Part shown: positions 3,842 through 55,754 of the stretch, piece by piece | Layout: every line of letters begins with the position of its first letter | Position numbering within the stretch: the first letter of the stretch is position 1 | Source: Escherichia coli | GTDB lineage: Bacteria > Pseudomonadota > Gammaproteobacteria > Enterobacterales > Enterobacteriaceae | Direction: 5' to 3' (one strand) | Assembly (NCBI RefSeq): GCF_001677475.2 | Contig: NZ_CP015229.1 | DNA: 64,000 nt | Program-made: the position numbers and the translations under genes | The notes under the pieces: generated by a model | Told to the model about the DNA's origin: nothing | The model's database searches: none | The model's input: only the letters and a program-made list of their open reading frames with translations

Positions 3842-3902
3842 TTTTTCCTCATAAATTTGATGCCAGGTGAGGCTGTGTTTGTTTTGTTCGTTGCCGCTTT
3901 TT

Positions 3903-4089
3903 GCCTGATGCGACGCTGGCGCGTCTTATCAGGCCTACAAGACCCGAGCACAGAACCGTAGGCCGGATAAGGCGTTCACGCCGCATCCGGCATTCAGTGC
4001 CTGATGCGACGCTGACGCGTCTTATCAGGCCTACAGGTCCCGAGCACAGAACCGTAGGACGGATAAGGCGTTTTACGCCGCATCCGGCA
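3903..4089. repeat. REP/BIME cluster (two inverted REP units)
   Basis: Two copies of gcctgatgcgacgctg.cgcgtcttatcaggcctaca ... ccgtaggncggataaggcgtt.acgccgcatccggca between wcaK and wzxC. Confidence 0.8.
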
Positions 4090-4116: not shown

Positions 4117-5595
4117 TCACCCCGCCCGTAAAAACATTTTCATTTTTTCGCTGCGACAAAACTGACGCTTCACTTCCACCACCAGCGGATGGCGCGACAG
4201 CACAATCATCACCACAAACGCCAGCACGCCCGCGGCTATTTGCACCGCCAGCAGCATCCCCAGCGCCAGTTGCCCTTTCAGTACAATGCCCAGTGCATAA
4301 CTGACCACCAGCGTCGGCAGCGAGAGATAAAACGGTAGCCACAAACTCAGGATGTACTGGCGATAACTGGAACCGAGCACCGGTTTAATCATCACGAAAT
4401 AGCTCAGAATGGTGTTGATAATCTGCACCAGCAGGAAACCGAGCGTGACGCCGATTGCGCCCGCCATCTGCCCACCAATGATGATTGCCGGAATAAACAG
4501 AAATGTTTTGAATACGTTGAATTTAAAGCTGATATCCACCCGCGCTTTCGCCATCAGCAGCGAACCAATCGGGTTACCCACTGAGCGCAGTAGCCCCACC
4601 ACACACAGCAATTGCAGCACCGGAATAATGCTGTTCCACTTTTCGCCAAATACCAGCGGTACAAAGTTATTCGACACCACCATTAGCCCCAGCAGCGCCG
4701 GAAAGTTGATAATCCCCACTACCGACAGCAGCTTGTAGAAGTTGACGCGCAGCTTTTCGGTGTCGTCCTGAATTTTGGCAAATGCCGGAAACAACACGCG
4801 GGTGATGATTGGGTTCAGCTTCATCGGCGGCACAACTGCCACGTTGTACGCCAGGTTGTATCCCCCTGCCACGCCCGCGCCGAGAATACGCGCCAGCACC
4901 AGCGTTGAAAGGTTGGTGTTGAGATAGTTGATGATGCTGTCCGCCGTCAGCCAGGCACCAAAGCGTAAGTTCGGTGCCACCGACGCCAGCGAGAAATGCA
5001 GACCGGGGCGATAAATTTTGCGGCCAAAGTAGCCAAACAGCAGCGTTCTTACCGCACTATTGACCAGATAACCGAGGATCGCGGTCATCGCCAGCGGCCA
5101 GAAATGGGCGCTAACCACCGTAAAAGTAAAGCCCGCCAGCACCGCGCTGGTTTCGATCATGCCGATTTTGTTGAACTCCAGCTCTTTTTGCATCAACGCG
5201 CGGAACTGCTGCCCGTGGGGGATCACCACAAACGCCAGTGACAATGTTTTAATCAACGGTGCCAGGTCCGGGTTATTCAGCACGTCGCCGATGAGATCAC
5301 TCAACAAAAACACTGCCACGCACACTACAATCCCCAGCCCGACGTTCAGCCAGTACAGCGTGGTGAGTTCCAGGTGGCTGATTTCTTTTCGCTGAATAAT
5401 CGAGTTAGCGATACCGAAGTCAGAAAGCGTATCTGCCAGCGCGATGATCACCAGCGACACGGTAAGCAAACCGAACTGGTGGTTGTCAATAATCCGCGCC
5501 AGCACGGTCATCTGTACCAGCCCGAGGCCGATGATGATCACCGTAGCAATCGCCGACCACTTCGCGCCGCTGATGGTTTTTTCACGTAAGCTCAT
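4117..5595 (-). CDS. wzxC: Colanic acid repeat-unit flippase WzxC
   Basis: 492-aa polytopic membrane ORF MSLREKTISGAKWSAIATVIIIGLG...; Wzx/MOP-type flippase; synteny. Confidence 0.9.
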   Translation of the reverse strand: MSLREKTISGAKWSAIATVIIIGLGLVQMTVLARIIDNHQFGLLTVSLVIIALADTLSDFGIANSIIQRKEISHLELTTLYWLNVGLGIVVCVAVFLLSDLIGDVLNNPDLAPLIKTLSLAFVVIPHGQQFRALMQKELEFNKIGMIETSAVLAGFTFTVVSAHFWPLAMTAILGYLVNSAVRTLLFGYFGRKIYRPGLHFSLASVAPNLRFGAWLTADSIINYLNTNLSTLVLARILGAGVAGGYNLAYNVAVVPPMKLNPIITRVLFPAFAKIQDDTEKLRVNFYKLLSVVGIINFPALLGLMVVSNNFVPLVFGEKWNSIIPVLQLLCVVGLLRSVGNPIGSLLMAKARVDISFKFNVFKTFLFIPAIIIGGQMAGAIGVTLGFLLVQIINTILSYFVMIKPVLGSSYRQYILSLWLPFYLSLPTLVVSYALGIVLKGQLALGMLLAVQIAAGVLAFVVMIVLSRHPLVVEVKRQFCRSEKMKMFLRAG

Positions 5596-5596
5596 A

Positions 5597-6991
5597 TCAA
5601 TATGCCGCTTTGTTAACGAAACCTTTGAATACCGTCAGGAAAACGATTTTGATATCGAACCAGACGCTCCATTCGCGGATGTACTCAAGGTCGAACTCGA
5701 CGCGTTTTTCCATTTTCTCCAGCGTGTCGGTTTCGCCGCGCCAGCCGTTAATCTGCGCCCAGCCAGTAATGCCCGGTTTCACTTTATGGCGCAGCATGTA
5801 GCCTTCAATGAGCTGTCGATACTGTTCGTTATGCGCCACTGCGTGCGGACGTGGCCCGACAATCGACATCCCACCAGTCAGCACATTGATAAACTGCGGC
5901 AATTCGTCCAGCGAGGTGCGGCGCAGAAAGTTCCCCACTTTGGTAACGCGCGGATCGTTCTGCGTCGCCTGGGTCACCACTTTGTCGTTCTCCATCACTT
6001 TCATGGAACGGAACTTCCACACTTTGATCGGTTTGCCATCCATGCCATAGCGAGTCTGGCGGAAAATAACCGGCCCTGGTGAACTGAGTTTCACCGCCAG
6101 CGCAATACAGCACAGCACCGGGGAGATCAGCAGCAGAATAAGCGTCGCCAGCACAATGTCTTCCGCACGTTTGAGCAGGCGGTTTACCCCGGAAAGCGGC
6201 GTATCGTACAGCGGTACCACCGGTACGCCGTTCATCTCTTCGATACGGGAATGGAGAATGTTGAAGGTAAAGACATCGGGGATCAGCAGCACCGAACAGG
6301 TGGTGTCCGCCAGTTGATGGACCAGTTTTTTCACGCGCGCGCCGTCGCACATTTGCATCGCGATATAGACGTTATGAATCTTGCCCGCTTTCGCATCCTC
6401 GACCAGTTGTTGCAGATTACCCGCCCAGTCGTTAGAAACGCCGCCCGGTTTTGGGTCGTGGTATACGCCCACCACTTCAAACCCTAACCACGGCTGATTA
6501 CGGAAGCTCTCCATCAGCATTTGTCCGGCGGCTAAATCCCCCGCTACGGCGACCATACGCTTGTTATAGCCATGATTACGCAGCCAGCCCGCCCCAATGC
6601 GAATACATGAACGGCAAACCACCAGTCCGATGCTGGTCAGCCCATACCACGCCAGCCAGATTTTCAGTTGCGTGTCGAAATCATTGTTGAACGCCACCAG
6701 ACCGGCGCTGAAAATCACGCTTAAGGTCCAGTTTTGTAGCAACAGGGCAAATTCTGTCGCTGCCCGAACACCGCGCCATGAGCGATAAAAATCGGTGATG
6801 CCGCCCAGCATCTGGAACACCACCAGCGTAATCAGCGCCACCAACAGGTGCATGTAGAGGAATGACAGTCCGCTCACTTCGCAAACCAGCCATAACCCGG
6901 CAAACATGATGGTGATATCTGAAAAGCGTTGCACCATAGAGATTAACGATGCATTGGTTTTCGCTCGCTCGCGCTTTTTTAGATTTGTCAT
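5597..6991 (-). CDS. wcaJ: Undecaprenyl-phosphate glucose-1-phosphate transferase WcaJ (initiating sugar transferase)
   Basis: 464-aa ORF with N-terminal TM helices and C-terminal bacterial sugar transferase domain (...PGITGWAQINGWRGETDT...). Confidence 0.9.
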   Translation of the reverse strand: MTNLKKRERAKTNASLISMVQRFSDITIMFAGLWLVCEVSGLSFLYMHLLVALITLVVFQMLGGITDFYRSWRGVRAATEFALLLQNWTLSVIFSAGLVAFNNDFDTQLKIWLAWYGLTSIGLVVCRSCIRIGAGWLRNHGYNKRMVAVAGDLAAGQMLMESFRNQPWLGFEVVGVYHDPKPGGVSNDWAGNLQQLVEDAKAGKIHNVYIAMQMCDGARVKKLVHQLADTTCSVLLIPDVFTFNILHSRIEEMNGVPVVPLYDTPLSGVNRLLKRAEDIVLATLILLLISPVLCCIALAVKLSSPGPVIFRQTRYGMDGKPIKVWKFRSMKVMENDKVVTQATQNDPRVTKVGNFLRRTSLDELPQFINVLTGGMSIVGPRPHAVAHNEQYRQLIEGYMLRHKVKPGITGWAQINGWRGETDTLEKMEKRVEFDLEYIREWSVWFDIKIVFLTVFKGFVNKAAY

Positions 6992-7011
6992 CGTTGTTCC
7001 TGTTCTATTGT

Positions 7012-7118
7012 CGCCTCGCCCCTCACCCCGGCCCTCTCCCCAAAGGGGCGAGGGGGAGAAGAAAGTTCCGTGCTCACTTCTCTCCGCAGGCAGTAGAGCG
7101 TCAGGGTGAGGGGGAAAG
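7012..7118. repeat. BoxC-like GC-rich palindromic intergenic element
   Basis: cgcccctcaccccggccctctcccc...ggggcgagggggag ... gggtgaggggg; nested inverted repeats between wcaJ start and cpsG stop; resembles the E. coli BoxC repeat (reverse complement gggagagggccggggtgagggg) as I recall it. Confidence 0.45.
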
Positions 7119-7126
7119 TAATGACA

Positions 7127-8497
7127 TTACTCGTTCAGCAACGTCAGCAGAGTTCGCGTTCGCGCTTCCATCAGCGGCACATCACCGCGCGATTCCACAT
7201 TCAGGCGCACCACCGGTTCGGTGTTGGAGGAGCGCAGGTTAAAGCGCCAGTCGGCAAAGGTCATGCTGATGCCATCGGTGCGATCCACCGCCAGCGCCTC
7301 ACGGCTAAAATGCTGTTCCACGCGGTTAATCGCCTCAACGGGATGCGCCAGTTTGCTGTTGATCTCACCGCTTGCCGGAAACGCCGCCATCCGGTCGCGT
7401 ACCAGTTCGCCCAGCGTTTTCTCTTTCAGGCACACCAGTTCGGCGACCAGCAGCCACGGGATCATGCCGCTGTCGCAGTAAGCGAAATCACGGAAGTAAT
7501 GGTGGGCGCTCATTTCGCCACCGTAGATGGCGTCTTCCTTGCGCATCCGTTCTTTAATAAAGGCGTGTCCGGTTTTCGACATCACCGGAGTGCCGCCCGC
7601 GGCAGTCACCACATCAACGGTGTTCCAGGAGAGACGTGGATCGTGGATGATCTTCGCGCCGGGATTTTTTTCGAGGAACGCTTCTGCCAGTAGGCCGACA
7701 ATGTAGTAGCCCTCAATAAACTGCCCTTTTTCGTCAAACAGGAAACAGCGGTCAAAATCGCCATCAAAGGCAATGCCCATATCCGCGCCGTGTTTGATGA
7801 CCGCATTGCGGGTGTCATCGCGGCATTCCGGCAGCAGCGGGTTAGGAATACCGTTGGGGAAATTGCCGTCCGGCGTGTTGTGCACTTTGATCAATTCCAC
7901 CGGTGCGCCGAGGGCGTTAAAGCGGGCTTCGATAGCGTCCACCACCGGCCCCGCTGCGCCGTTCCCGGAGTTGATTACCAGCTTGAGCGGCGTGAGGTTT
8001 TTGACGTTGATATAACCGAACAGGTGATCAACGTAAGCGTCACGCAGATTGATTTGCTGATAGCGACCGCGTTTTGTTTCATCAACGGGAGGAAAGTCGT
8101 TGGCTTCTGCCAGACGCTGGACGTCGCGCAGTCCGGTATCACCGCTGATCGGGCGGGCCCCTTCGCGCACCAGCTTCATGCCGTTGTAATCCATCGGGTT
8201 ATGGCTGGCGGTAACTTCGATGCCGCCATCCACGCCGAGATGGAACGTGGCGAAATAGATCTCTTCGGTGCCGGACATGCCAATATCCAGCACATCGACG
8301 CCCGCATCCTGTAAACCTTTCGCCAGCGCCAGTTTTAAGGTTTCGCTGGTGAGGCGGACATCACCGCCTAACACAATGGTTTTCGGTTTGAGAAATTCGC
8401 CATAGGCACGCCCAATACGCCAGGCAATATCTTCATTCAGTTCTTCGCCTAATTTCCCGCGAATATCGTAGGCTTTAAAGCAGGTTAATTTTTTCAT
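7127..8497 (-). CDS. cpsG: Phosphomannomutase CpsG (ManB)
   Basis: ORF 7127..8545; start trimmed to [19 protein letters not shown]... (456 aa); phosphohexomutase active-site motif TASHNP present. Confidence 0.9.
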
Positions 8498-8587
8498 GTC
8501 GTTACCCTTTTTCAGGCAATAGTTGGCCCTGACCGAAGCGGCCAATTTTGTTTTTGTCGTTATTTACATCGCGGTTCGGCATTCATT

Positions 8588-8689
<102 letters not shown>

Positions 8690-8699
<10 letters not shown>

Positions 8700-10126
8700 C
8701 CGTAGCGATCCGCGAAGCGCACCACATCATCCTCTTCGAGATAAGAGCCGGAGCGCACTTCAATTAAATCGAGCGGAATTTTCCCCGGGTTTTCCAGGCA
8801 GTGCTTCGCCCCCAGCGGAATATAAATGGACTCGTTTTCACCAAGCAGTTTGATATCACCGTCAATAGTGACTTTTGCCGTTCCCGCGACAACCACCCAG
8901 TGTTCCGCCCGGTGATGGTGCATCTGTACCGACAAGCCTTCGCCCGGTTTCACGGTGATGCGTTTCACCTGGTAGCGGTCGCCCGCGTCGATAGAGTCAT
9001 ATTTGCCCCACGGGCGATAGACTTCGCGATGTACCCGATGCTCATGGCGACCATCGGCTTTGATCTGCTCGACCACTTTTTTCACATCCTGCACCGCATT
9101 GCGGTCGGCAATCAGCACCGCATCTTTGGTCTGCACTACCACCAAATCTTTCACCCCGACGGTGGTGACCAGGCCAGATTCGGCATACACATAGCTGTTT
9201 TCAGTTTTGTGATTAATCACATCGCCATGGCAAACGTTGCCCTCGGCGGTGTGGGCGCTGATCTCCCATAAAGAGGACCAGGAGCCGACATCGCTCCAGC
9301 CCGCATCCATCGGCACCACAACAGCATCTGCCGTGCGTTCCATAACTGCGTAATCCACCGACTCTTCCGGGCAGGCCAGAAACGCTTCTTCATCCACACG
9401 AATAAAATCGAGATCCGGATCGACGGCGCTCATCGCTTTTTCACAGGCGTTGAGGATGTCCGGGCGATATTTTTTCAGTTCTTCGAGATAGCGTCCGGCG
9501 CGGAACAGGAACATGCCGCTGTTCCAGTAATATTCGCCGCTTGCCACATAGGCCTGGGCGGTTTCCAGATTCGGTTTTTCGACAAACTGCGCCACTTCAA
9601 AGGCCACCGTATCCTGCTCACCCGCCGACACTTCACCGCGACGAATATAGCCATAACCGGTTTCTGGTAGATCCGGCACAATGCCGAAGGTCACCAGCTT
9701 ACCTGCTTCGGCATATGGCATGGCATTACGCACGGCGGCACGGAACGCGTCTTCATCGGCAATCACATGATCCGCCGCCAATACCAGCATTAACGGGTCG
9801 CTCTCCGGGCTATGACGTTTTGCCGCCAGCGCCGCCAGTGCAATGGCAGGTGCAGTGTTACGCCCTGCCGGTTCGAGAATAATGTTCTCGGTGAGTTTGT
9901 TCAGTTGACGCAGCTGTTCCGCGACAATAAAGCGGTGCTGCTCATTACAAATCACCACCGGGCTTTCGCACTCCACGCCGTTCAGGCGACAGATGGTGGT
10001 TTGCAGCATGGTGAGATCGCCTTTCAGGCATAAAAACTGCTTGGGGTAAAGTACGCGGGAAAGCGGCCATAAGCGGCTCCCGGAGCCACCTGCCATCACA
10101 ACTGGATAGAGTTTCGACTGCGCCAT
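8690..10126 (-). CDS. cpsB: Mannose-1-phosphate guanylyltransferase CpsB (ManC)
   Basis: 478-aa [27 protein letters not shown]... with C-terminal cupin/mannose-6-P isomerase-like domain. Confidence 0.9.
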
Positions 10127-10128
10127 AA

Positions 10129-11352
10129 TTATCCCCGAATATCATTTATAAATTGACGTAACACGTTCTCTTTATCGAGCGTGCGTTCGGCATATTCACG
10201 TGCCACCGTGTTGTGTTTGGGCAGCAGGAGCGCCTGACGGATCCCCGCCACCAGTGCCTCGACCGATTCCGGTTCTACGCAAACCGCAATGCCCGGAAAG
10301 GTTTCGCAAAGCTGCCCCAGTTCGGTGTGGGCTTCTGCGGTAATCACCGCGTTACCACCTACCGCCAGAATATTGGTCAGTTTCGACGGCAATACGGCAT
10401 CTGCCGCGCCGCGTTTTTGCACTACCAGATGGCAATCGCCCATCTTCAGCAGTGCGGGTAAAGCGTCATACGATTGCAGTGGAAAAAATTGCATGTTGCG
10501 CAGTCCACGCTGCTGCGCCATTTTTTCCAGCCGCGCTTTGCCGCCGCCCTGCCCGACAATGGCAAAAATCAGCGGTTCATCGCGCAGGCGATCGGCAGCT
10601 TCAATAACGTTTTCCAGCCCTTGCTTTTCACCAATATTGCCGGAGTAAAGAATGATTTTTTTGTTATCCGGCAGGCCAAGCTGGTTACGAAGGGCATCAA
10701 CATCGGCGTCTGCAACATATTGAAAACGGGCGATTTCCGACCAATTGGGGAAGAAGATGACGTTTTCCGCCGCCACGCCTTTTTCGATGGCTTTATTCAT
10801 CATCGAACGCGAAATCGTGGAGACGTTATCGACGTTATGCAGTCCGCTACGTTCGAACGCCGTCGCCAGCTGTGCCACTTTGCCGCCTTTGCCTTTTCCG
10901 GCAAGGCCCAGCCCCAGCATGGCGTCCACTTCGTAATCCTGAATATGCAGCACCGTGCGCGCACCAGAAAGTTTCGCCAGCAGGCGCATTCCCGGCGTGC
11001 AAAACAGCGTTGGCACTACGCCAATAATGCGCTCCGGCTTCCAGCGACGTTGCGCCATCAGCGGGAAAAAACTGCTGACGGCAAAACTGCCGAGATGCAA
11101 CAGGCGTTTCAGGGTGCTCGGCTGTTTTGGCACATACAGCGGGCAGCGCCACACCGTGGCGGCCCCCTCTTCCCGTTTGTACCGCCAGGCGGAATAGTTC
11201 TCACCCACCTGCCACTGCGGGTAGTAAGGCGGTGCGGTAATGACCCGCACCTCATGACCTTGTGCCGCAAGCCATTCCACCATCTCTCCGGTGTATTTGC
11301 CGATGCCGGTTAACTCCGGCGAGTAGTTAATGCCGTAGACCAGTATTTTCAT
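10129..11352 (-). CDS. wcaI: Colanic acid biosynthesis glycosyltransferase WcaI
   Basis: 407-aa [27 protein letters not shown]...; GT4 family; synteny. Confidence 0.9.
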
Positions 11353-23028: not shown

Positions 23029-23040
23029 CACGCTACCGCC
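23029..23040 (-). promoter_or_regulatory. ops element (GGCGGTAGCGTG) inside the JUMPstart of the cps leader; RfaH recruitment site
   Basis: Plus strand reads cacgctaccgcc, so the minus (cps-sense) strand reads ggcggtagcgtg, about 180 nt upstream of the wza ATG in the untranslated leader. Confidence 0.7.
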
Positions 23041-23252
23041 CCTGGCTTTTAGCTACCAATACACTGATTTAGCTTAATTTTTAAAACCCTCTCAACATAC
23101 AGTCGTTGATGAGAAAGGGTTATTGCGGAAATTAACTTCCGAATATAAGGTGACATTATGGTAATTGAATATTGGCTCTCCAATAATGCAGGAGGAAGTG
23201 TTACAGCTAACGGAATAGCAGGCAAGGTAACAATTCGGCAATTGGCTATTTT

Positions 23253-38432: not shown

Positions 38433-38613
38433 AAGAAATCCTTTCTTAGAGAATTATTGAGGTCCGGTATCATACCGATTGCAATAATGAAATAAGAGCA
38501 AACGAAGAAACTTTCAGAATTAGTCCCGGCGGCGCAGAAAATTTTGCTATTCGCCTCGCAAGAACGGAGAGCCGTCGATTGACACTAAGGGCGGAGTGAC
38601 ATAATTTCAGGAG

Positions 38614-38763
38614 TGAGGGTTAGGGAGAGGTTTCCCCCTCCCCCTGGTGTTCTTAGTAAGCCTGGAAGCTAATCACTAAGAGTATCACCAGTATGATGAC
38701 GTGCTTCATCATAACCCTTTCCTTATTAAAAGCCCTCTTCTCCGGGAGAGGCTTTCCCGTTTC
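38614..38763 (+). ncRNA. sibA: Sib antitoxin sRNA, copy 1 (SibA-like); ends approximate
   Basis: Promoter ttgaca (38579-84), 17-bp spacer, taattt; antisense to the whole ibs ORF; terminator hairpin agccctcttctccgggagaggct plus tttcccgttt. Confidence 0.6.
38653..38712 (-). CDS. ibsA: Ibs type I toxin peptide, 19 aa (MMKHVIILVILLVISFQAY)
   Basis: Minus-strand atgatgaagcacgtcatcatactggtgatactcttagtgattagcttccaggcttactaa; hydrophobic Ibs-family peptide fully overlapped by the antisense Sib. Confidence 0.8.
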   Translation of the reverse strand: MMKHVIILVILLVISFQAY

Positions 38764-38948
38764 AGCGTCCCGCTGAAATCGTCGGCTTACCTCCTTTCGC
38801 CCTGAATGCAGTCTATCGCTAACGCGTGAACAAAATAGTTTCCTCTGTGATTATTGCGTAACGACTCGCAAAGAATATTTGCTGGCAGGATCGCAGACTG
38901 CAAAGCCTGCAGATTGACAATCTTATCGTGAAGGCATACTTTCAGGAG

Positions 38949-39090
38949 TGAGGGTAGAGCGGGGGTTCCCCCGCCCTGGTAGTCTTAGTAAGCCGGGAAG
39001 CTTATGACTAAGAGCACCACGATGATGATCCACTTCATCATGACCCTTTCCTTATTTAAGGCCCCTTCCTCGGGAGGGGCTTTCCCGTTT
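38949..39090 (+). ncRNA. sibB: Sib antitoxin sRNA, copy 2; ends approximate
   Basis: Promoter ttgaca (38914-19), N17, tacttt (38937-42); terminator gccccttcctcgggaggggc plus tttcccgttt. Confidence 0.6.
38985..39041 (-). CDS. ibsB: Ibs type I toxin peptide, 18 aa (MMKWIIIVVLLVISFPAY)
   Basis: Minus-strand atgatgaagtggatcatcatcgtggtgctcttagtcataagcttcccggcttactaa. Confidence 0.8.
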   Translation of the reverse strand: MMKWIIIVVLLVISFPAY

Positions 39091-39276
39091 CAGCGTCCCG
39101 CTGAAATCATCGGCTTACCTCCTTTCGCCCTGAATGCAGTCTATCGCTGACTTGCGGATAAAATAGTTTCACATGTGATTATTGCGTAGCGTCTCGCAAA
39201 GAATATTTGCTGGCAGGATCGCAGACTGCAAAGCCTGCAGATTGACAATCTTATCGTGAAGGCATACTTTCAGGAG

Positions 39277-39418
39277 TGAGGGTAGAGCGGGGTTTCCCCC
39301 GCCCTGGTAGTCTTAGTAAGCTGGCCAGCTAATGACTAAGAGCACCACGATGATGAGTATCTTCATCATGACCCTTTCCTTATTTAAGACCCCTTCCTCG
39401 GGAGGGGCTTTCCCGTTT
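39277..39418 (+). ncRNA. Sib antitoxin sRNA, copy 3; ends approximate
   Basis: Promoter ttgaca (39242-47), N17, tacttt (39265-70); terminator hairpin 39388-39408 plus T-run. Confidence 0.6.
39313..39369 (-). CDS. Ibs type I toxin peptide, 18 aa (MMKILIIVVLLVISWPAY)
   Basis: Minus-strand atgatgaagatactcatcatcgtggtgctcttagtcattagctggccagcttactaa. Confidence 0.75.
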   Translation of the reverse strand: MMKILIIVVLLVISWPAY

Positions 39419-44017: not shown

Positions 44018-47000
44018 GTGAAGTTTTTTGCCCTCTTCATTTACCGCCCGGTGGCGACGATTTTACTGTCGGTCGCCATTACCCTTTGCGGCATACTGGG
44101 CTTCCGTATGCTGCCGGTCGCCCCGCTGCCGCAGGTCGATTTTCCGGTGATTATGGTCAGCGCCTCGCTGCCCGGTGCGTCACCTGAAACAATGGCGTCT
44201 TCCGTTGCCACGCCGCTGGAGCGCTCACTTGGGCGCATTGCCGGAGTCAGCGAAATGACCTCCAGCAGTTCGCTCGGCAGCACGCGGATTATTTTGCAGT
44301 TTGATTTTGACCGGGATATCAACGGCGCAGCGCGTGATGTGCAGGCGGCGATCAACGCTGCACAAAGTTTGCTGCCCAGCGGGATGCCAAGCCGTCCGAC
44401 CTATCGCAAAGCGAACCCGTCGGATGCGCCAATTATGATCCTGACGCTAACCTCCGATACTTATTCGCAAGGTGAACTGTACGATTTCGCCTCAACACAG
44501 CTTGCCCCGACGATTGCGCAAATCGACGGTGTCGGTGATGTCGATGTTGGCGGCAGCTCGCTGCCCGCCGTGCGCGTCGGGCTGAATCCGCAGGCGCTGT
44601 TTAATCAGGGCGTATCGCTGGACGACGTACGCACTGCCATCAGCAATGCCAACGTGCGTAAACCGCAGGGGGCGCTGGAAGATGGCACTCACCGCTGGCA
44701 GATCCAGACCAATGATGAGCTAAAAACCGCCGCTGAATATCAGCCGTTGATTATTCATTACAACAACGGCGGCGCGGTTCGTCTGGGTGATGTGGCGACG
44801 GTGACAGACTCGGTGCAGGATGTGCGCAACGCCGGGATGACCAACGCCAAACCGGCTATTTTGCTGATGATCCGCAAGCTGCCGGAAGCCAATATTATCC
44901 AGACGGTTGACAGCATCCGGGCAAAATTACCGGAGTTGCAGGAGACCATTCCGGCGGCGATTGATCTGCAAATTGCCCAGGATCGCTCCCCCACCATTCG
45001 CGCCTCGCTGGAAGAAGTCGAGCAAACGCTGATTATCTCGGTGGCGCTGGTGATTCTGGTGGTGTTTTTATTCCTGCGCTCGGGTCGCGCCACTATTATT
45101 CCCGCCGTTGCGGTGCCGGTTTCGCTGATTGGTACGTTTGCGGCGATGTACCTGTGCGGTTTCAGTCTCAATAATCTTTCGTTAATGGCGCTCACCATCG
45201 CTACTGGTTTCGTGGTGGATGACGCCATCGTAGTGCTGGAAAACATTGCCCGTCATCTGGAAGCGGGGATGAAACCGCTACAGGCCGCGCTGCAAGGCAC
45301 CCGTGAAGTCGGATTTACGGTGCTGTCGATGAGTCTGTCACTGGTGGCGGTGTTCCTGCCGCTGCTGTTGATGGGCGGATTGCCGGGCCGACTGTTACGC
45401 GAATTTGCCGTGACGCTTTCAGTCGCCATTGGGATTTCGTTGCTGGTTTCCCTCACGCTAACGCCGATGATGTGCGGCTGGATGCTAAAAGCCAGCAAGC
45501 CGCGCGAGCAAAAGCGACTGCGTGGTTTTGGTCGCATGTTGGTAGCCCTGCAACAAGGCTATGGCAAGTCGCTGAAATGGGTGCTCAATCATACCCGTCT
45601 GGTTGGCGTGGTGCTGCTTGGCACCATTGCGCTGAATATCTGGCTATATATCTCGATCCCGAAAACCTTCTTCCCGGAGCAGGACACCGGCGTGTTGATG
45701 GGCGGGATACAGGCGGATCAGAGTATTTCGTTTCAGGCAATGCGCGGCAAATTGCAGGATTTCATGAAAATTATCCGTGACGATCCGGCAGTGGATAATG
45801 TCACCGGATTTACCGGCGGTTCGCGAGTGAACAGCGGGATGATGTTTATCACCCTCAAGCCACGCGACGAACGCAGCGAAACGGCGCAGCAAATTATCGA
45901 CCGTCTGCGGGTGAAGCTGGCGAAAGAACCGGGGGCGAATCTGTTCCTGATGGCGGTACAGGATATTCGCGTTGGTGGGCGTCAGTCGAACGCCAGCTAC
46001 CAGTACACGTTGTTATCCGACGACCTGGCGGCACTGCGCGAATGGGAGCCGAAAATCCGCAAAAAACTGGCGACGTTGCCAGAATTGGCGGACGTGAACT
46101 CCGATCAGCAGGATAACGGCGCGGAGATGAATCTGGTTTACGATCGCGACACCATGGCGCGGCTGGGAATCGACGTGCAGGCCGCCAACAGCCTGTTAAA
46201 TAACGCCTTCGGTCAGCGGCAAATCTCGACCATTTACCAGCCGATGAACCAGTACAAAGTGGTGATGGAAGTGGATCCGCGCTATACCCAGGACATCAGC
46301 GCGCTGGAAAAAATGTTCGTTATCAATAACGAAGGAAAAGCGATCCCACTGTCGTATTTCGCTAAATGGCAACCGGCGAATGCCCCGCTGTCGGTGAATC
46401 ATCAGGGATTATCGGCGGCCTCGACCATCTCGTTCAACCTGCCGACCGGAAAATCGCTCTCGGACGCCAGTGCGGCGATCGATCGCGCAATGACCCAGCT
46501 TGGTGTGCCTTCGACGGTGCGCGGCAGTTTTGCCGGAACAGCGCAGGTGTTCCAGGAGACGATGAACTCACAGGTGATCCTGATTATCGCCGCCATCGCC
46601 ACGGTCTATATCGTGCTGGGTATCCTTTACGAGAGTTACGTACATCCGTTGACGATTCTCTCCACCCTGCCCTCGGCGGGCGTTGGGGCGCTGTTGGCGC
46701 TGGAGCTGTTCAATGCCCCGTTCAGCCTAATCGCCCTAATAGGGATCATGCTATTAATCGGCATCGTGAAGAAAAACGCCATTATGATGGTCGATTTTGC
46801 GCTTGAAGCCCAACGGCACGGTAACCTCACGCCGCAGGAAGCTATTTTCCAGGCCTGTCTGCTGCGTTTTCGCCCGATTATGATGACTACCCTGGCGGCG
46901 CTGTTTGGCGCGCTGCCGCTGGTATTGTCGGGCGGTGACGGTTCGGAGCTGCGGCAACCCCTGGGGATCACCATTGTCGGCGGTCTGGTAATGAGCCAGC

Positions 47001-47095
47001 TTCTGACGCTGTATACCACACCGGTGGTGTATCTCTTTTTCGACCGTCTGCGGCTGCGTTTTTCGCGTAAACCTAAACAAACGGTAACCGAGTAA
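44018..47095 (+). CDS. mdtC: RND multidrug efflux transporter MdtC
   Basis: 1025-aa [46 protein letters not shown]... Confidence 0.9.
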
Positions 47096-48511
47096 ATGAC
47101 AGATCTTCCCGACAGCACCCGCTGGCAATTGTGGATTGTGGCTTTCGGCTTCTTTATGCAGTCGCTGGACACCACCATCGTAAACACTGCCCTTCCCTCA
47201 ATGGCACAAAGCCTCGGGGAAAGTCCGTTGCATATGCACATGGTCATTGTCTCTTATGTACTGACCGTGGCGGTGATGCTGCCCGCCAGCGGCTGGCTGG
47301 CGGACAAAGTCGGCGTGCGCAATATTTTCTTTACCGCCATCGTGCTGTTTACTCTCGGTTCACTGTTTTGCGCGCTTTCCGGCACGCTGAACGAACTGTT
47401 GCTGGCACGCGCGTTACAGGGCGTTGGCGGTGCGATGATGGTGCCGGTCGGCAGGTTAACGGTGATGAAAATCGTACCGCGCGAGCAATATATGGCGGCA
47501 ATGACCTTTGTCACGTTACCCGGTCAGGTCGGTCCGCTGCTCGGTCCGGCGCTCGGCGGTCTGCTGGTGGAATACGCGTCGTGGCACTGGATCTTTTTGA
47601 TCAACATTCCGGTGGGAATTATCGGTGCGATCGCCACATTGATGTTAATGCCGAACTACACCATGCAGACGCGGCGCTTTGATCTTTCCGGCTTTTTATT
47701 GCTGGCGGTTGGCATGGCGGTATTAACCCTGGCGCTGGACGGCAGTAAAGGTACAGGTTTATCGCCGCTGGCGATTGCTGGCCTGGTCGCAGTTGGCGTG
47801 GTGGCACTGGTGCTTTATCTGCTGCACGCCAGAAATAACAACCGCGCCCTGTTCAGTCTGAAACTGTTCCGTACTCGTTCCTTTTCGCTGGGCCTGGCGG
47901 GGAGTTTTGCCGGACGTATTGGCAGTGGCATGTTGCCCTTTATGACACCGGTTTTCCTGCAAATTGGCCTTGGCTTCTCACCGTTTCATGCCGGACTGAT
48001 GATGATCCCGATGGTGCTTGGCAGCATGGGAATGAAGCGAATTGTTGTTCAGGTGGTGAATCGCTTTGGCTACCGTCGGGTACTGGTAGCGACCACGCTG
48101 GGTCTGTCGCTGGTCACCCTGTTGTTTATGACTACCGCTCTGTTGGGCTGGTACTACGTTTTGCCGTTCGTCCTGTTTTTACAAGGGATGGTCAACTCGA
48201 CCCGTTTCTCCTCCATGAACACCCTGACGCTGAAAGATCTCCCGGACAATCTGGCGAGCAGCGGCAACAGTCTGCTGTCGATGATTATGCAATTGTCGAT
48301 GAGTATCGGCGTCACAATCGCCGGGCTGTTGCTGGGACTTTTTGGTTCGCAGCATGTCAGCGTCGACAGCGGCACCACACAAACCGTCTTTATGTACACC
48401 TGGCTTAGCATGGCGTTTATCATCGCCCTTCCGGCGTTCATCTTTGCCAGAGTGCCGAACGATACGCATCAAAATGTAGCTATTTCGCGGCGAAAAAGGA
48501 GCGCGCAATGA
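47096..48511 (+). CDS. mdtD: MFS transporter MdtD
   Basis: 471-aa [44 protein letters not shown]...; 14-TM MFS. Confidence 0.9.
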
Positions 48512-49911
48512 AGTTTTGGCGACCCGGTATTACCGGCAAACTGTTTCTGGCGATTTTCGCCACCTGCATTGTCTTGCTGATCAGTATGCACTGGGCGGTG
48601 CGTATCAGTTTTGAGCGTGGCTTTATTGATTACATCAAGCATGGTAATGAACAGCGATTACAACTGTTAAGTGATGCGCTTGGCGAGCAGTATGCGCAAC
48701 ATGGCAACTGGCGCTTCCTGCGCAACAATGATCGCTTTGTCTTTCAGATCCTGCGTTCATTTGAACACGATAATTCGGAAGATAAACCCGGCCCGGGTAT
48801 GCCACCACACGGCTGGCGTACTCAGTTCTGGGTGGTTGATCAAAACAACAAAGTGCTGGTTGGTCCGCGAGCGCCGATTCCACCTGACGGTACACGGCGA
48901 CCCATTCTGGTCAACGGTGCGGAAGTGGGCGCGGTGATTGCCTCCCCCGTTGAGCGGCTGACCCGCAATACTGATATCAATTTCGATAAACAACAACGGC
49001 AAACCAGCTGGCTGATTGTCGCCCTGGCAACGTTACTCGCGGCACTCGCCACTTTTCTGCTGGCGCGCGGTTTGCTGGCACCGGTAAAACGACTTGTCGA
49101 TGGCACGCACAAACTGGCGGCAGGCGATTTCACTACCCGCGTAACGCCCACCAGTGAAGATGAACTGGGCAAACTGGCGCAAGACTTCAACCAGCTTGCC
49201 AGCACGCTGGAGAAAAACCAGCAAATGCGGCGCGATTTTATGGCCGATATTTCTCACGAACTGCGTACGCCATTAGCGGTGCTGCGCGGTGAACTGGAAG
49301 CCATTCAGGATGGCGTGCGCAAATTCACGCCGGAGACGGTGGCGTCTTTACAGGCGGAGGTCGGTACACTGACCAAACTGGTTGACGATCTTCATCAGTT
49401 GTCGATGTCTGATGAAGGCGCTCTCGCCTATCAAAAAGCACCGGTAGATTTGATCCCACTGCTGGAAGTGGCGGGCGGCGCATTTCGCGAACGATTTGCC
49501 AGCCGTGGCCTGAAACTGCAATTTTCCCTGCCAGACAGTATCACCGTATTTGGCGATCGCGACCGTTTAATGCAGTTATTCAATAACTTACTTGAAAACA
49601 GCCTGCGCTACACTGACAGCGGCGGCAGCCTGAAAATCTCTGCCGAGCAGCACGACAAAACGGTGCGCCTGACCTTTGCCGACAGTGCGCCAGGTGTCAG
49701 TGACGATCAGCTACAAAAATTGTTTGAACGTTTTTATCGCACCGAAGGTTCCCGCAACCGCGCCAGCGGCGGTTCCGGGCTGGGGCTGGCGATTTGCCTG
49801 AACATTGTTGAAGCACATAATGGCCGCATTATTGCTGCCCATTCGCCTTTTGGCGGGGTAAGCATTACAGTAGAGTTACCGCTGGAACGGGATTTACAGA
49901 GAGAAGTATGA
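48508..49911 (+). CDS. baeS: Envelope-stress sensor histidine kinase BaeS
   Basis: 467-aa ORF with HAMP, H-box (ISHELRTPL) and HATPase_c ([10 protein letters not shown]) motifs. Confidence 0.9.
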
Positions 49912-50630
49912 CCGAGTTACCAATCGACGAAAACACACCGCGTATTTTGATCGTGGAAGATGAACCGAAGCTGGGGCAGTTGCTCATTGATTATCTGCGT
50001 GCTGCGAGCTATGCGCCGACGCTTATCAGCCACGGCGATCAGGTACTGCCGTATGTGCGCCAGACACCACCGGATCTGATCCTGTTGGATCTGATGCTCC
50101 CTGGCACCGATGGCTTGACGCTGTGCCGGGAAATTCGTCGTTTTTCTGACATTCCTATCGTGATGGTGACGGCAAAAATCGAAGAGATCGACCGCCTGCT
50201 CGGACTGGAGATTGGCGCAGATGATTATATCTGTAAGCCGTACAGCCCACGGGAAGTGGTAGCGCGCGTCAAAACCATTTTGCGCCGTTGCAAACCGCAG
50301 CGCGAGTTGCAGCAACAGGATGCTGAAAGCCCGTTGATTATCGACGAAGGTCGTTTTCAGGCTTCATGGCGTGGTAAAATGCTTGACCTGACGCCTGCGG
50401 AATTTCGTCTGCTGAAAACGCTCTCTCATGAACCAGGAAAAGTGTTCTCCCGCGAGCAATTGCTCAATCATCTTTATGACGACTACCGCGTAGTAACCGA
50501 CCGCACCATCGACAGCCACATTAAAAACCTGCGCCGCAAGCTGGAATCTCTCGACGCCGAACAGTCATTTATCCGCGCCGTTTACGGCGTTGGTTACCGC
50601 TGGGAAGCCGACGCCTGCCGCATCGTTTAG
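49908..50630 (+). CDS. baeR: OmpR-family response regulator BaeR
   Basis: 240-aa [33 protein letters not shown]...; REC plus winged-helix domains; overlaps baeS by 4 bp. Confidence 0.9.
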
Positions 50631-50820
50631 TTTTAGCGACATTACTTTGTTAGCCGGAGATGGCGTTCAGACCAGATCCGGCAACATTATCCCACGCATG
50701 GTCAGCAAACTGACATTATCTCTCCGCCCTGGCAGGTATCAGAAAATCGCTCATACTTTAATCGGTAAACAGCACCTTTAGATGCTGTTTTCGATACGCA
50801 ATTTCAATCAAGGAGTCATT

Positions 50821-51153
50821 ATGGCTGGTTGGTTTGAACTCAGTAAGAGCAGTGATAATCAGTTCCGGTTTGTGCTAAAAGCGGGCAATGGTGAGACTAT
50901 CCTCACCAGCGAGCTGTATACCTCAAAAGCCTCTGCGGAAAAGGGCATTGCGTCGGTGCGTAGCAACAGCCCGCAAGAAGAACGCTATGAGAAAAAAACG
51001 GCAAGCAACGGCAAATTCTATTTCAATCTGAAAGCCGCCAATCATCAAATTATCGGCTCCAGCCAGATGTACGCCACCGCGCAATCTCGTGAAACCGGAA
51101 TTGCCTCCGTTAAAGCCAATGGCACAAGCCAGACGGTGAAAGACAATACGTAA
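50821..51153 (+). CDS. yegP: UPF0339 (tandem DUF1508) protein YegP
   Basis: ORF 50782..51153 trimmed to MAGWFELSKSSDNQFRFVLKAGNGETILTSELY... (110 aa) with RBS aaggag; two internal repeats (FRFVLKA.., FYFNLKA..). Confidence 0.85.
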   Translation: MAGWFELSKSSDNQFRFVLKAGNGETILTSELYTSKASAEKGIASVRSNSPQEERYEKKTASNGKFYFNLKAANHQIIGSSQMYATAQSRETGIASVKANGTSQTVKDNT

Positions 51154-51299
51154 TTACGATGCCGGGCGTGGGTTGTTGGCGTCCGGCGCTTTACCAGATA
51201 CCCCCACAGCGCTACAATGCCCGCCCTTAAAGTGGGGGCACTCCCCTAACCGCTTCATCAGGTGAAGCGGATCTGACCTGTCATCAGAACGAGAGAATT

Positions 51300-52661
51300 A
51301 TGTTTAAACCGGAACTCCTTTCCCCGGCGGGAACGCTGAAAAATATGCGTTACGCTTTCGCTTATGGCGCAGATGCTGTTTATGCGGGCCAGCCGCGTTA
51401 CTCCCTGCGTGTGCGCAACAACGAATTCAACCACGAAAATCTTCAGCTCGGCATCAATGAAGCCCACGCGCTGGGGAAAAAGTTTTATGTCGTGGTCAAC
51501 ATTGCACCGCACAACGCCAAGCTGAAAACTTTTATCCGTGACCTGAAACCGGTGGTGGAAATGGGGCCGGATGCGCTGATTATGTCCGATCCAGGGCTGA
51601 TTATGCTGGTGCGTGAGCACTTCCCTGAAATGCCGATCCATCTCTCGGTACAGGCTAACGCCGTGAACTGGGCGACGGTGAAATTCTGGCAGCAAATGGG
51701 CCTGACCCGCGTGATCCTCTCTCGCGAGCTGTCGCTGGAAGAGATTGAAGAGATCCGCAATCAGGTGCCAGATATGGAGATCGAAATCTTCGTTCACGGC
51801 GCGCTGTGCATGGCCTACTCCGGTCGCTGCCTGCTCTCTGGCTATATCAACAAGCGCGACCCGAACCAGGGCACCTGCACCAACGCCTGCCGCTGGGAGT
51901 ACAACGTCCAGGAAGGGAAAGAAGATGACGTTGGCAACATCGTACACAAGTACGAGCCGATTCCGGTGCAAAATGTTGAGCCGACGCTGGGTATCGGCGC
52001 GCCAACCGACAAAGTGTTTATGATCGAAGAAGCCCAGCGTCCGGGCGAGTATATGACCGCGTTTGAAGATGAGCACGGCACTTACATCATGAACTCGAAA
52101 GATCTGCGCGCCATCGCCCATGTAGAACGCCTGACCAAAATGGGCGTGCATTCGCTGAAAATCGAAGGTCGTACCAAATCTTTCTACTATTGCGCACGCA
52201 CCGCGCAGGTTTACCGTAAAGCTATCGATGACGCCGCTGCGGGCAAACCGTTCGATACCAGCCTGCTGGAAACTCTGGAAGGTCTGGCGCATCGTGGCTA
52301 TACCGAAGGTTTCCTGCGTCGTCATACTCACGACGATTATCAGAACTACGAATACGGTTATTCAGTTTCTGACCGCCAGCAGTTTGTTGGTGAGTTTACC
52401 GGTGAGCGCAAGGGGGACCTCGCGGCGGTAGCGGTGAAAAATAAATTCTCCGTTGGCGACAGCCTGGAGCTGATGACGCCGCAAGGCAACATTAACTTTA
52501 CCCTTGAGCACATGGAAAACGCCAAAGGCGAAGCTATGCCGGTAGCACCAGGCGATGGTTATACTGTGTGGCTCCCGGTGCCGCAGGATCTTGAGCTAAA
52601 TTACGCGCTGCTGATGCGTAATTTCTCCGGGGAAACCACGCGTAACCCCCACGGTAAGTGA
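51300..52661 (+). CDS. trhP: Peptidase U32-family protein YegQ / TrhP (tRNA 5-hydroxyuridine synthesis)
   Basis: 453-aa ORF MFKPELLSPAGTLKNMRYAFAYGADAVYAGQPRYSLR...; U32 family. Confidence 0.85.
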   Translation: MFKPELLSPAGTLKNMRYAFAYGADAVYAGQPRYSLRVRNNEFNHENLQLGINEAHALGKKFYVVVNIAPHNAKLKTFIRDLKPVVEMGPDALIMSDPGLIMLVREHFPEMPIHLSVQANAVNWATVKFWQQMGLTRVILSRELSLEEIEEIRNQVPDMEIEIFVHGALCMAYSGRCLLSGYINKRDPNQGTCTNACRWEYNVQEGKEDDVGNIVHKYEPIPVQNVEPTLGIGAPTDKVFMIEEAQRPGEYMTAFEDEHGTYIMNSKDLRAIAHVERLTKMGVHSLKIEGRTKSFYYCARTAQVYRKAIDDAAAGKPFDTSLLETLEGLAHRGYTEGFLRRHTHDDYQNYEYGYSVSDRQQFVGEFTGERKGDLAAVAVKNKFSVGDSLELMTPQGNINFTLEHMENAKGEAMPVAPGDGYTVWLPVPQDLELNYALLMRNFSGETTRNPHGK

Positions 52662-52691
52662 TTAATTTCGATTATTTTTCCCGGATGGAAA

Positions 52692-52713
52692 ATTCTTAGA
52701 AACCGATCACATA
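52692..52713 (+). promoter_or_regulatory. Candidate CRP site of the cyaR promoter
   Basis: One good half-site TCACA (52707-11) with a weak partner ttaga; centred about 43 bp upstream of the cyaR 5' end; -10-like tatcat at 52733-38. Confidence 0.35.
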
Positions 52714-52745
52714 CAGCTGCATTTATTAAGGTTATCATCCGTTTC

Positions 52746-52832
52746 GCTGAAAAACATAACCCATAAAATGCTAGCTGTACCAGGAACCACCTCCTTAGCC
52801 TGTGTAATCTCCCTTACACGGGCTTATTTTTT
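52746..52832 (+). ncRNA. cyaR: CyaR (RyeE) Hfq-dependent sRNA
   Basis: gctgaaaaacataacccataaaatgctagctgtaccaggaaccacctccttagcctgtgtaatctcccttacacgggcttatttttt matches my memory of CyaR and ends in a terminator hairpin (gtgtaa...ttacac) plus T6. Confidence 0.85.
52806..52832. other. Phage P2-type attachment core, apparently unoccupied attB, at the cyaR 3' end
   Basis: aatctcccttacacgggcttatttttt is the reverse complement of the P2 att core AAAAAATAAGCCCGTGTAAGGGAGATT (from memory); no ogr-like or other phage ORF follows. Confidence 0.55.
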
Positions 52833-53160
52833 ATGCATAAGCCCTATCCCTGATAACCGTCTTCCATTGACCACATCGATAGAATCCCCCTTCATAGCAC
52901 GATGCCTTTCACTTAACGGCATCGTGCTCGCCCAGGTTCCGGCTACGCACGGCCAGAACGCGCATGTTTGACGCTTACCAAAAAATGAACCTAAAGCATT
53001 GGAATATTTTTGACATCATTTTCTGATGGCGGCATAGAATAAAAATTCTGCTTTAGTTTCATCTATCTGTTTGTCATTATTACTCACATTCAATAATGGT
53101 GTTGAAGAACATCTATCAGAGATAAAAATGAATGTGTCCATGGTAGTCTTGAATCTATTC

Positions 53161-53478
53161 TCACTCTCCACATTTGAATGTCAGACGAGCGACGCCATGT
53201 AATCCTGCACCTTCTGTCTTCAGGTCAACTATCTGCATTTTTTTGCCCTGAGTAACACAGAAATGGGCTGCATCATTTTTTACTATATTTTCTGCACCAG
53301 AAATTCTGCCCCTGGCTAAAGAAGCTTCGGCTTCGGTGTAGTATTGGTTATCGAGTTTACGCTGAATATTACTTTTATATGCAAGGCCAAATTTACCGAT
53401 ACTTGTCTCATCATTATGCACAGCACAACCAGACATAAGAAAAACACTAATTAATGATATAGCAGCTATCTTGTTCAC
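53161..53478 (-). CDS. yegR: Small putative lipoprotein, probably YegR
   Basis: ORF 53161..53538; probable GTG start giving (M)NKIAAISLISVFLMSGCAV... (105 aa) with lipobox LMSGC; position next to yegS. Confidence 0.55.
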   Translation of the reverse strand: MNKIAAISLISVFLMSGCAVHNDETSIGKFGLAYKSNIQRKLDNQYYTEAEASLARGRISGAENIVKNDAAHFCVTQGKKMQIVDLKTEGAGLHGVARLTFKCGE

Positions 53479-53894
53479 CTCACCTTCCCCCATTAAATAC
53501 CAACGACACTCTCTAGTGTTTAAATATAATAATGGCATGATTATTATAATTGAATAGGATTATAATAAATATTCTGTACAACATTTCCTACATAAGTAGG
53601 AATTACGGACATGGAGGCCCTTCCGGGTAACTCCATGGGGGGCTTTAATATATTTTGAATAGTATATTGAAGATGCCACTGTTTAGTTGAATTATTAGGT
53701 ATATGCTCTTTTTTGAAATTTATCGGTAGCTGCCGTTAGTATTCGCTGTCCCCATTGCAAGCTCCTGGTGGTAACCACTGAATCCTCCATACTTGAACTG
53801 ACTTTTTATCCTCCGACTTTCATCCTGTTCTGACTCCACCTTTTCTTTTCTGCTCTACACTATCTACAGACCAATCATAAAGGCACATACGATC

Positions 53895-54794
53895 ATGGCA
53901 GAATTTCCCGCCAGCTTACTGATTCTTAATGGCAAAAGTACTGACAATTTACCATTGCGCGAAGCAATTATGCTTTTGCGTGAGGAAGGAATGACGATCC
54001 ATGTGCGGGTCACCTGGGAGAAAGGTGATGCCGCACGATTTGTAGAGGAGGCCCGGAAGTTGGGCGTCGCAACGGTGATTGCCGGTGGTGGCGATGGCAC
54101 CATTAATGAAGTTTCTACGGCGTTGATTCAGTGTGAGGGGGATGACATACCCGCGCTGGGAATTTTGCCATTAGGAACCGCCAATGATTTTGCCACCAGT
54201 GTAGGGATTCCTGAGGCACTGGATAAGGCACTGAAACTGGCAATTGCCGGTAACGCCATTGCAATAGATATGGCGCAGGTCAACAAACAAACCTGTTTTA
54301 TTAATATGGCGACAGGCGGGTTTGGGACGCGTATTACCACAGAAACGCCGGAAAAATTAAAAGCCGCGCTGGGTGGCGTCTCTTACATCATTCATGGCTT
54401 AATGCGTATGGATACTCTGCAACCGGACCGTTGTGAAATCCGCGGTGAAAACTTTCACTGGCAAGGTGACGCCCTGGTCATTGGTATTGGTAACGGGCGT
54501 CAGGCCGGTGGCGGTCAACAATTGTGCCCGAACGCGTTAATTAACGATGGCTTGCTGCAACTGCGCATTTTTACCGGCGATGAAATTCTTCCGGCTCTCG
54601 TATCAACCTTAAAATCTGACGAAGATAACCCGAATATTATCGAAGGCGCTTCGTCGTGGTTTGATATACAAGCCCCACACGAAATCACTTTTAATCTTGA
54701 TGGCGAACCGTTGAGTGGGCAAAACTTCCATATTGAAATACTTCCGGCGGCGTTACGTTGTCGATTACCACCAGATTGTCCATTATTGCGTTAA
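53895..54794 (+). CDS. yegS: Lipid kinase YegS (DAGK_cat family)
   Basis: 299-aa [35 protein letters not shown]...GGDGTINEV... Confidence 0.9.
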
Positions 54795-54832
54795 TCAAAC
54801 TATTCTTTCTTGAACCAGGGAGAATCCGTAAT

Positions 54833-54866
54833 GCCGGATGCGGTGTAAACACCTTATCCGGCATAC
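54833..54866. repeat. REP element
   Basis: gccggatgcggtgtaaacaccttatccggcat between yegS and gatR. Confidence 0.7.
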
Positions 54867-54875
54867 AGAACAATA

Positions 54876-55655
54876 CTACACCGTAATTAATTTTACCCGT
54901 GTCTTCTGCAATGCCAGTTTATCCACCTCTGACACAGCATCATCGGTAATAATAATGTCGATTTTTTCGATTGGCAGTACCTGATTAAAACCACGACGGT
55001 TAAATTTCGATGAATCGAGAACGGCAATCACTTTATTAGCGGCGGTGACCATCGCCCCGCTAATCGAATAACCTTCATTAAAGGTCGTAATACCATTAAC
55101 CGCATCAATACCATCAGCACCGACAAACATTAAATCGGCATTAATATCCTGCAATGAACGCTCGGCAATGGAACCATGCATCGAGCGCGTTTTATGGCGG
55201 ACGGTGCCACCACAGACGACCAGAGTAATGTCTTTATTTTCGGAAAGGGCAAACGCTGCCGGGAGACTATTGGTAATCACCGTGATATTTTTGGCGGTCA
55301 TTAATCCTTCAGCGATAAGCATCGTCGTACTTCCGCTGTCGAGAATAACGGTCATCCCTTCGTGGATCATTTTGACTGCCGCCTGCGCTATTCTGTTTTT
55401 TGGCGCGCTGGCGAGCTGAAATCGCTCTTTAAACCCGACTTCCTGGGTCTCGATTTCACTATTACCAGACATTATTTTCGCCGCACCGCCATGAAAGCGC
55501 GTAACCACGCCTTTTTGTTCGAGAAAGCGCAAATCGGCACGGATTGTCGCTTCCGAGGCAGCAAATACTCCCGCCAGATCCTGAACAAGCACGGTTCCCT
55601 GTTCATTCACTAATTGGATGATCTTATTCCTTCGCTCGAATGAATTCATCGTCAT
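54876..55655 (-). CDS. gatR: DeoR-family galactitol operon repressor GatR, uninterrupted
   Basis: 259-aa ORF MTMNSFERRNKIIQLVNEQGTVLVQDLAGVFAASEATIRADLRFLEQKGVV...; continuous HTH plus sugar-binding domain; no IS sequence. Confidence 0.85.
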   Translation of the reverse strand: MTMNSFERRNKIIQLVNEQGTVLVQDLAGVFAASEATIRADLRFLEQKGVVTRFHGGAAKIMSGNSEIETQEVGFKERFQLASAPKNRIAQAAVKMIHEGMTVILDSGSTTMLIAEGLMTAKNITVITNSLPAAFALSENKDITLVVCGGTVRHKTRSMHGSIAERSLQDINADLMFVGADGIDAVNGITTFNEGYSISGAMVTAANKVIAVLDSSKFNRRGFNQVLPIEKIDIIITDDAVSEVDKLALQKTRVKLITV

Positions 55656-55714
55656 TTACCCATATTCAATTGTGGCTAGTGTAAACGAAGGGGGACCATT
55701 GGTGAATGATCTGT

Positions 55715-55750
55715 TTTGCACAATACCGGGCCAGCATCACGCTGGCCCGC
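55715..55750 (-). terminator. Candidate gat operon terminator
   Basis: cgggccagc-atcac-gctggcccg hairpin just downstream of the gatD stop; flanking U-run is weak. Confidence 0.3.
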
Positions 55751-55754
55751 GGTT

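Follow-up and report, generated by a model that had tools for sequence, protein, structure and literature searches.

An uninterrupted gatR gene in Escherichia coli contig NZ_CP015229.1 predicts a repressible gat operon

Introduction

In Escherichia coli K-12 MG1655, gatR (b4498) is annotated as a two-piece pseudogene arranged around an IS3E element of 1258 bp at record positions 2170171-2171428 (RefSeq NC_000913). Joined, the two fragments form a CDS of 774 nt in which IS3E follows nt 299, its insertion having duplicated 3 bp (GTC), and splits the gene between its HTH and sensor domains. Nobelmann and Lengeler (1996) are credited with the original description of the gatR::IS allele of K-12. 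The insertion inactivates gatR and leads to constitutive gat expression (PMC5850726), for which further support is found in PMC9189660, and gat is over-expressed in MG1655 relative both to REL606, in which gatR is intact (PMC3446290), and to NCM3722, which was reported to be without the gatR disruption (PMC3045373). The insertion has been given more than one name: one passage of Sousa et al. 2017 (PMC5850726) calls it 'IS1', while RefSeq annotation and a 2026 CRISPRi preprint name it IS3E, and 1258 bp is the RefSeq length of IS3E.

Intact alleles have been studied in other strains. When the gatR allele of strain HS was put in place of the MG1655 pseudogene, gat regulation was restored, and in mice the restored gene was inactivated once more by fresh IS insertions that gave rise to constitutive mutants; selection in the mouse gut has in this sense repeatedly acted on gat regulation (PMC5850726). 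When the intact gatR of LF82 and CFT073 was silenced by CRISPRi, fitness was strongly affected, and in MG1655 the silencing produced no signal; in CFT073 the silencing was strongly beneficial, which was read as repression (bioRxiv 10.64898/2026.01.05.697630). In Salmonella Typhimurium, deletion of the HTH of GatR abolishes repression, and over-production of the protein inhibits growth on tagatose (PMC7972205). Galactitol-1-phosphate, tagatose-6-phosphate and tagatose-1,6-bisphosphate have been predicted to act as GatR effectors; we found only these predictions, and no experimentally determined GatR inducer, in the literature (PMC5540944).

Here we examine gatR and its surroundings in a stretch of 64,000 nucleotides of E. 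coli DNA (assembly GCF_001677475.2, contig NZ_CP015229.1), referred to below as the window. An earlier note on this DNA, made from its letters alone, had proposed that gatR is intact and that the gat operon should be repressible.

Results

Reading frame and domain content of gatR

The window contains, at 54876..55655 (-), a single uninterrupted ORF that encodes 259 aa when read from its first ATG, the end coordinate including the stop codon (Table 1). The true GatR product is probably 257 aa long and begins at the second ATG, at 55649, since this is the start chosen by RefSeq/PGAP in MB53, HS, CFT073 and K-12, MNSFERRNK forms the N-terminus in 25/25 aligned GatR orthologues, and the first ATG is not conserved: Enterobacter, Kosakonia and Phytobacter read ATCAAT at this point. 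The earlier note had described a continuous ORF of 259 aa; its continuity stands, without gap, frameshift or stop, and its length should likely be shortened by two residues.

Both of the domains that the note had assigned to this ORF, an HTH and an effector domain, were recovered by Pfam. HTH_DeoR (PF08220) scored 60.5 bits (cut-off 21), DeoRC (PF00455) scored 174.2 bits (cut-off 31.8), and the E values of the two matches exclude chance (Table 1). The HTH stretch is 100% identical to that of K-12 and HS GatR, and the protein also matches the C-terminal domain of the solved E. coli DeoR structure 7l6l (E=1.9e-11). With both an HTH and a DeoRC domain present, the gene is a member of the DeoR/GlpR family of transcription regulators.

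The best NCBIfam matches were to AgaR (NF040755, 232.7 bits) and SrlR (NF007753, 225.9 bits). Neither identity was accepted, because the scores fall below the respective curated equivalog cut-offs of 260 and 350; the protein is thus neither AgaR nor SrlR. It is instead identical at 256 of 257 residues to both the GatR reconstructed from K-12 and that of HS and is encoded directly after gatYZABCD, in agreement with the name gatR that the note had given to the gene.

The gene lies on the same strand as gatYZABCD, with yegS convergent on its other side, in the order fbaB-gatY-Z-A-B-C-D-gatR-yegS that is common to K-12, HS, CFT073 and MB53. All six genes of gatYZABCD (55755..61124) are equal in length to their counterparts in MB53 and contain zero internal stops. 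In Enterobacter, Kosakonia and Phytobacter, gatYZABCD-gatR is found between garD and rsmI and not between fbaB and yegS (positions 4260-10774).

Table 1. Features of the gat locus in the window, with positions counted from its first nucleotide.
Feature	Position	Strand	Remarks
REP-like palindromic element, between convergent yegS and gatR ends	54826..54870	.	Read from the sequence; identical in HS
gatR CDS	54876..55649	-	257 aa plus stop (probable start); maximal ORF 6 nt longer, to 55655 (259 aa)
DeoRC sensor (effector-binding) domain	54942..55403	-	PF00455, residues 85-238 of the 259-aa ORF, E=2.6e-51
Site equivalent to MG1655 IS3E insertion (GTC)	55351..55353	-	Uninterrupted in the window
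Codon 66 (257-aa numbering)	55452..55454	-	ATC (Ile); ACC (Thr) in K-12, HS, CFT073 and MB53
DeoR-type HTH DNA-binding domain	55476..55634	-	PF08220 HTH_DeoR, residues 8-60 of the 259-aa ORF, E=1.3e-16
gatD-gatR intergenic region, 105 bp	55650..55754	-	100% identical to K-12 and HS
Putative gatR promoter	TTCACC 55701-55706, 17-nt spacer, TACACT 55678-55683	-	Inspection and cross-genus conservation
G+C-rich stem-loop just past the gatD stop, no T-run	55727..55749	-	RNA fold, 9-bp stem
gatD	55755-56795	-	Intact
gatC	56843-58198	-	Intact; MG1655 gatC is a frameshifted pseudogene
gatB	58202-58486	-	Intact
gatA	58517-58969	-	Intact
gatZ	58979-60241	-	Intact
gatY	60270-61124	-	Intact
gatY promoter/operator region (candidate operator)	61125..61244	-	TTTCR/YGAAA pentamers, -10-like TATGTT, TGTGA CRP-like half-site

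Comparison with the K-12 and HS alleles

The realignment with K-12 that had been suggested as a check revealed no frameshift or stop in the window gatR. An alignment of 1001 columns, running from the end of gatD to the end of yegS in the window, HS and GCA_033745465.1, likewise contained zero gaps, frameshifts and internal stops. Relative to the reconstructed K-12 CDS, 13 of 774 nt differ, 12 of them synonymously and one changing Thr66 to Ile, and the gapless comparison with HS gatR also gives 13 substitutions, 12 synonymous; at the protein level HS GatR (WP_001295426.1) and reconstructed K-12 GatR are identical. That 12 of the 13 differences are synonymous indicates that gatR is under purifying selection.

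The note had also stated that gatR of K-12 is disrupted by an IS element and that gat is consequently constitutive. The disruption is accurate for MG1655, with its IS3E pseudogene, and does not extend to every K-12 derivative, as NCM3722 illustrates (PMC3045373); the constitutive expression that follows from the insertion is a matter of published experiment in MG1655 (PMC5850726).

To place the two states of the gene among complete E. coli genomes, we searched 5426 of them. The gatR query was matched in 5109, and in 4756 at least 80% of the gene was found in one place. A 120-bp probe across the K-12 IS3E site was contiguous in 4759/5426 (87.7%), a proportion that measures contiguity at the K-12 site and not the reading frame, and was partial in 348 and absent in 319. 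In the partial matches listed (3/3) the break coincides with the insertion point, and they include CETR3G40, named a K-12 strain. Among complete E. coli genomes an intact gatR is the norm (~88%), with MG1655 the exception.

Other disruptions of the locus were also encountered. In the BL21-derived T7Express_LysY an IS1A insertion splits gatR (locus positions 307-1856), and in the seawater isolate PCP06238 an IS1-bounded deletion has removed fbaB, gatYZABCD and most of gatR (locus positions 3288-4082). These are independent IS1 events and fit the published recurrent selection on the locus.

Intergenic elements and candidate operators

A scan of 54700-55900 for consensus promoters and terminators recovered neither element for gatR. 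The TTCACC and TACACT hexamers of the putative gatR promoter are kept in Enterobacter, Kosakonia and Phytobacter together with a CCTTCGnTTACACTA block. The stem-loop past gatD is also kept in these three genera, its two arms differing there from those of E. coli (GGGCCAGC/GCTGGCCC versus GAGCCAGC/GCTGGCTC).

Upstream of gatY, and counted from its ATG, TTTCR/YGAAA pentamers begin at -95, -44, -31, -25 and -5. This amounts to five pentamers per 120 bp, compared with a mean of 0.75, and five or more occur in just 0.09% of 120-bp windows. Four of the five flank the -10-like element or stand upstream of the TGTGA CRP-like half-site, and the orthologous upstream regions of Enterobacter, Kosakonia and Phytobacter carry 9 or 10 pentamers at gatY and 2 or 3 at gatR, at conserved positions. 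No E. coli GatR operator mapped by experiment came up in our literature search, and we propose the TTTCR pentamers as candidate GatR half-sites. The presence of pentamers upstream of both gatY and gatR suggests that GatR may be autoregulated in Enterobacter, Kosakonia and Phytobacter; in the region upstream of the window gatR, which equals that of K-12 and HS, no TTTCR pentamer was found, and a CCTTCGTTTACACTA block alone is retained.

Codon 66, the gatY promoter and the mosaic structure of the locus

T66I is the sole amino-acid difference between the window GatR and the experimentally validated HS allele, and it lies in the linker between the two Pfam domains. In two-domain repressors, linkers can carry the allosteric signal, and the change from Thr to Ile replaces a polar side chain with a bulky hydrophobic one. 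We aligned GatR with 24 further sequences, of which the HS allele is nearest, at one substitution, and the most distant orthologues are 71% identical; at column 66 these have T, A, S, N or G, and Ile in none. On these grounds the ORF could be intact and T66I nonetheless weaken the repressor or render GatR non-inducible, so that gat would not be normally regulated. We consider this highly improbable. Column 66 is among the most variable of GatR and falls within the least conserved stretch of the alignment, and in an AlphaFold2 model with a mean pLDDT of 77.7, residues 61-81 have a pLDDT <50 and residues 61-72 are without secondary structure. The exact Ile66 protein is moreover encoded on public contigs named E. 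coli, 48 for the 257-aa form and 36 for the 259-aa form, and occurs in at least five distinct assemblies with complete and otherwise intact gat loci. One draft assembly, GCA_033745465.1, reproduces window positions 47000-63649 at 100% identity. For the Citrobacter amalonaticus orthologue in the comparison, our public contig search found no encoding contig. Apart from T66I, the window gatR departs from HS by 12 synonymous differences, as purifying selection predicts, and we infer that T66I is a neutral natural polymorphism.

A second explanation would place the change in cis. The window gatY promoter is ~91% identical to that of K-12 and HS, compared with 98.3% for gatR: ~13 of 146 positions differ and 2 bp are deleted, the -10-like element reads TATGTT in place of TATATT, one upstream CTTTCA pentamer is lost, and the right half of the CRP-like site is weaker. 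Such divergence might alter basal or induced expression, or occupancy by GatR, and leave the operon leaky or poorly inducible; the suggestion that the CFT073 and LF82 operon does not de-repress in the mouse gut (bioRxiv 10.64898/2026.01.05.697630) also points in this direction. Against it, the promoter haplotype is a natural one, matched at 95-99% in 327 complete genomes, 042 included, and the pentamers at -95, -44, -31 and -25 are retained, with those nearest the -10 and the start unaltered. CFT073, whose promoter has the distinguishing features of this haplotype, also shows the strong effect on gatR silencing, from which it follows that repression works on this type of gatY promoter. We accordingly judge a cis defect to be very unlikely, and T66I and the gatY promoter haplotype would together be expected to leave regulation unchanged.

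The gat locus of the window (55755-61290), when compared with those of K-12, HS and CFT073, proves to be mosaic with respect to K-12. Identity to K-12 at the nucleotide level is 98.3% for gatR, 98.2% for gatD, 97.9% for gatC, 96.1% for gatB, 98.9% for gatA, 94.3% for gatZ and 93.7% for gatY, and over window positions 52600-64000 the best complete E. coli genome is 96.8% identical. An origin of the window outside E. coli, which this figure might suggest, was rejected in view of the complete identity of GCA_033745465.1 to positions 47000-63649 and of the public E. coli contigs that encode the exact GatR protein. It is conceivable that this recombinant mosaic, which joins gatR and gatD at ~98% to gatY, gatZ and their promoter at ~91-94%, acts together with the lineage-specific T66I to give tighter repression or poor inducibility. 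We lend this idea very little credence; were it true, an altered combination of regulator and operator would have a bearing on the known, recurrent selection that gat regulation undergoes in the gut.

Elements elsewhere in the window

Several further elements were recorded on either side of the gat locus. The intergenic region between fbaB and gatY carries a REP/BIME cluster (~61290-61440), with an Rfam naRNA4 match at 61341-61411 (-) and a 12-bp length difference relative to K-12; in CFT073 the same region holds IS200C. The CyaR sRNA is located at 52744-52829 (+). The P2-remnant genes ogrK and yegZ (cryptic prophage PR-X), which follow cyaR in K-12, are missing from window positions 52662-53160, and another genome with the Ile66 GatR allele has a P2-like prophage at the cyaR-adjacent spot.

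Rfam further identified three tandem copies of the Sib antitoxin RNA at 38579-38727, 38914-39056 and 39242-39384 (+), each scoring 137-150 bits; at the corresponding position, CFT073 carries two genes annotated as Ibs toxins. Rfam also placed a JUMPstart element at 23029-23066 (-) and an algC RNA motif at 8502-8551 (-), and these suggest that polysaccharide gene clusters lie within the window's first third.

Discussion

The window gatR is very probably a wild-type, functional allele of the repressor of gatYZABCD, the operon for the galactitol PTS and galactitol catabolism, and gat should be inducible in this strain, as in most natural E. coli. This prediction of a repressible operon, which the earlier note had also made, draws on the complete ORF, the presence of both domains, the near-identity to the validated HS allele and the intact gatYZABCD genes. 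According to published work, intact GatR holds gat transcription low when galactitol is absent. In the mechanism that we envisage from the sequence, its N-terminal winged HTH would bind repeated TTTCR-type half-sites overlapping the gatY promoter, GatR on these half-sites would occlude or loop the promoter, and binding of a phosphorylated pathway intermediate by the C-terminal DeoRC domain would release the repressor.

That natural E. coli have an intact gatR is already known biology and, beyond correct annotation, the intact gene described here matters little. Its relevance lies in the contrast with the reference strain. K-12 MG1655 is atypical at gat: its operon is constitutive owing to gatR::IS3E, and the reference gatC carries a frameshift as well. 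Natural isolates are expected to regulate gat, which is relevant when expression or gut-colonisation results obtained in MG1655 are extended to wild strains.

Among known regulators, AgaR, the repressor of the N-acetylgalactosamine/galactosamine regulon, and SrlR/GutR resemble the window protein in length and two-domain architecture, and differ in that the gene described here is linked to gat and not to aga or srl genes. The operators of AgaR, a paralogue of GatR, consist of CTTTC-type repeats, which the TTTCR pentamers upstream of gatY resemble. The GatR of Salmonella Typhimurium is, by its description, also a DeoR-type repressor of gat promoters (PMC7972205), although it belongs to another species in which the gat cluster is organised differently.

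Within E. coli, b4498 of MG1655 occupies the same locus, and its CDS is 13 of 774 nt apart from the window gatR; the two strains differ in that MG1655 combines gatR::IS3E with a frameshifted gatC pseudogene, and the window has neither defect. The HS allele, with its restored regulation, offers the closest comparison: it shares with the window gatR the position after gatD, the length of 257 aa, a gapless DNA alignment and an identical upstream intergenic region. The window differs from HS by T66I and 12 synonymous changes in gatR, and by a gatY promoter and gatYZ genes that belong to another natural haplotype.
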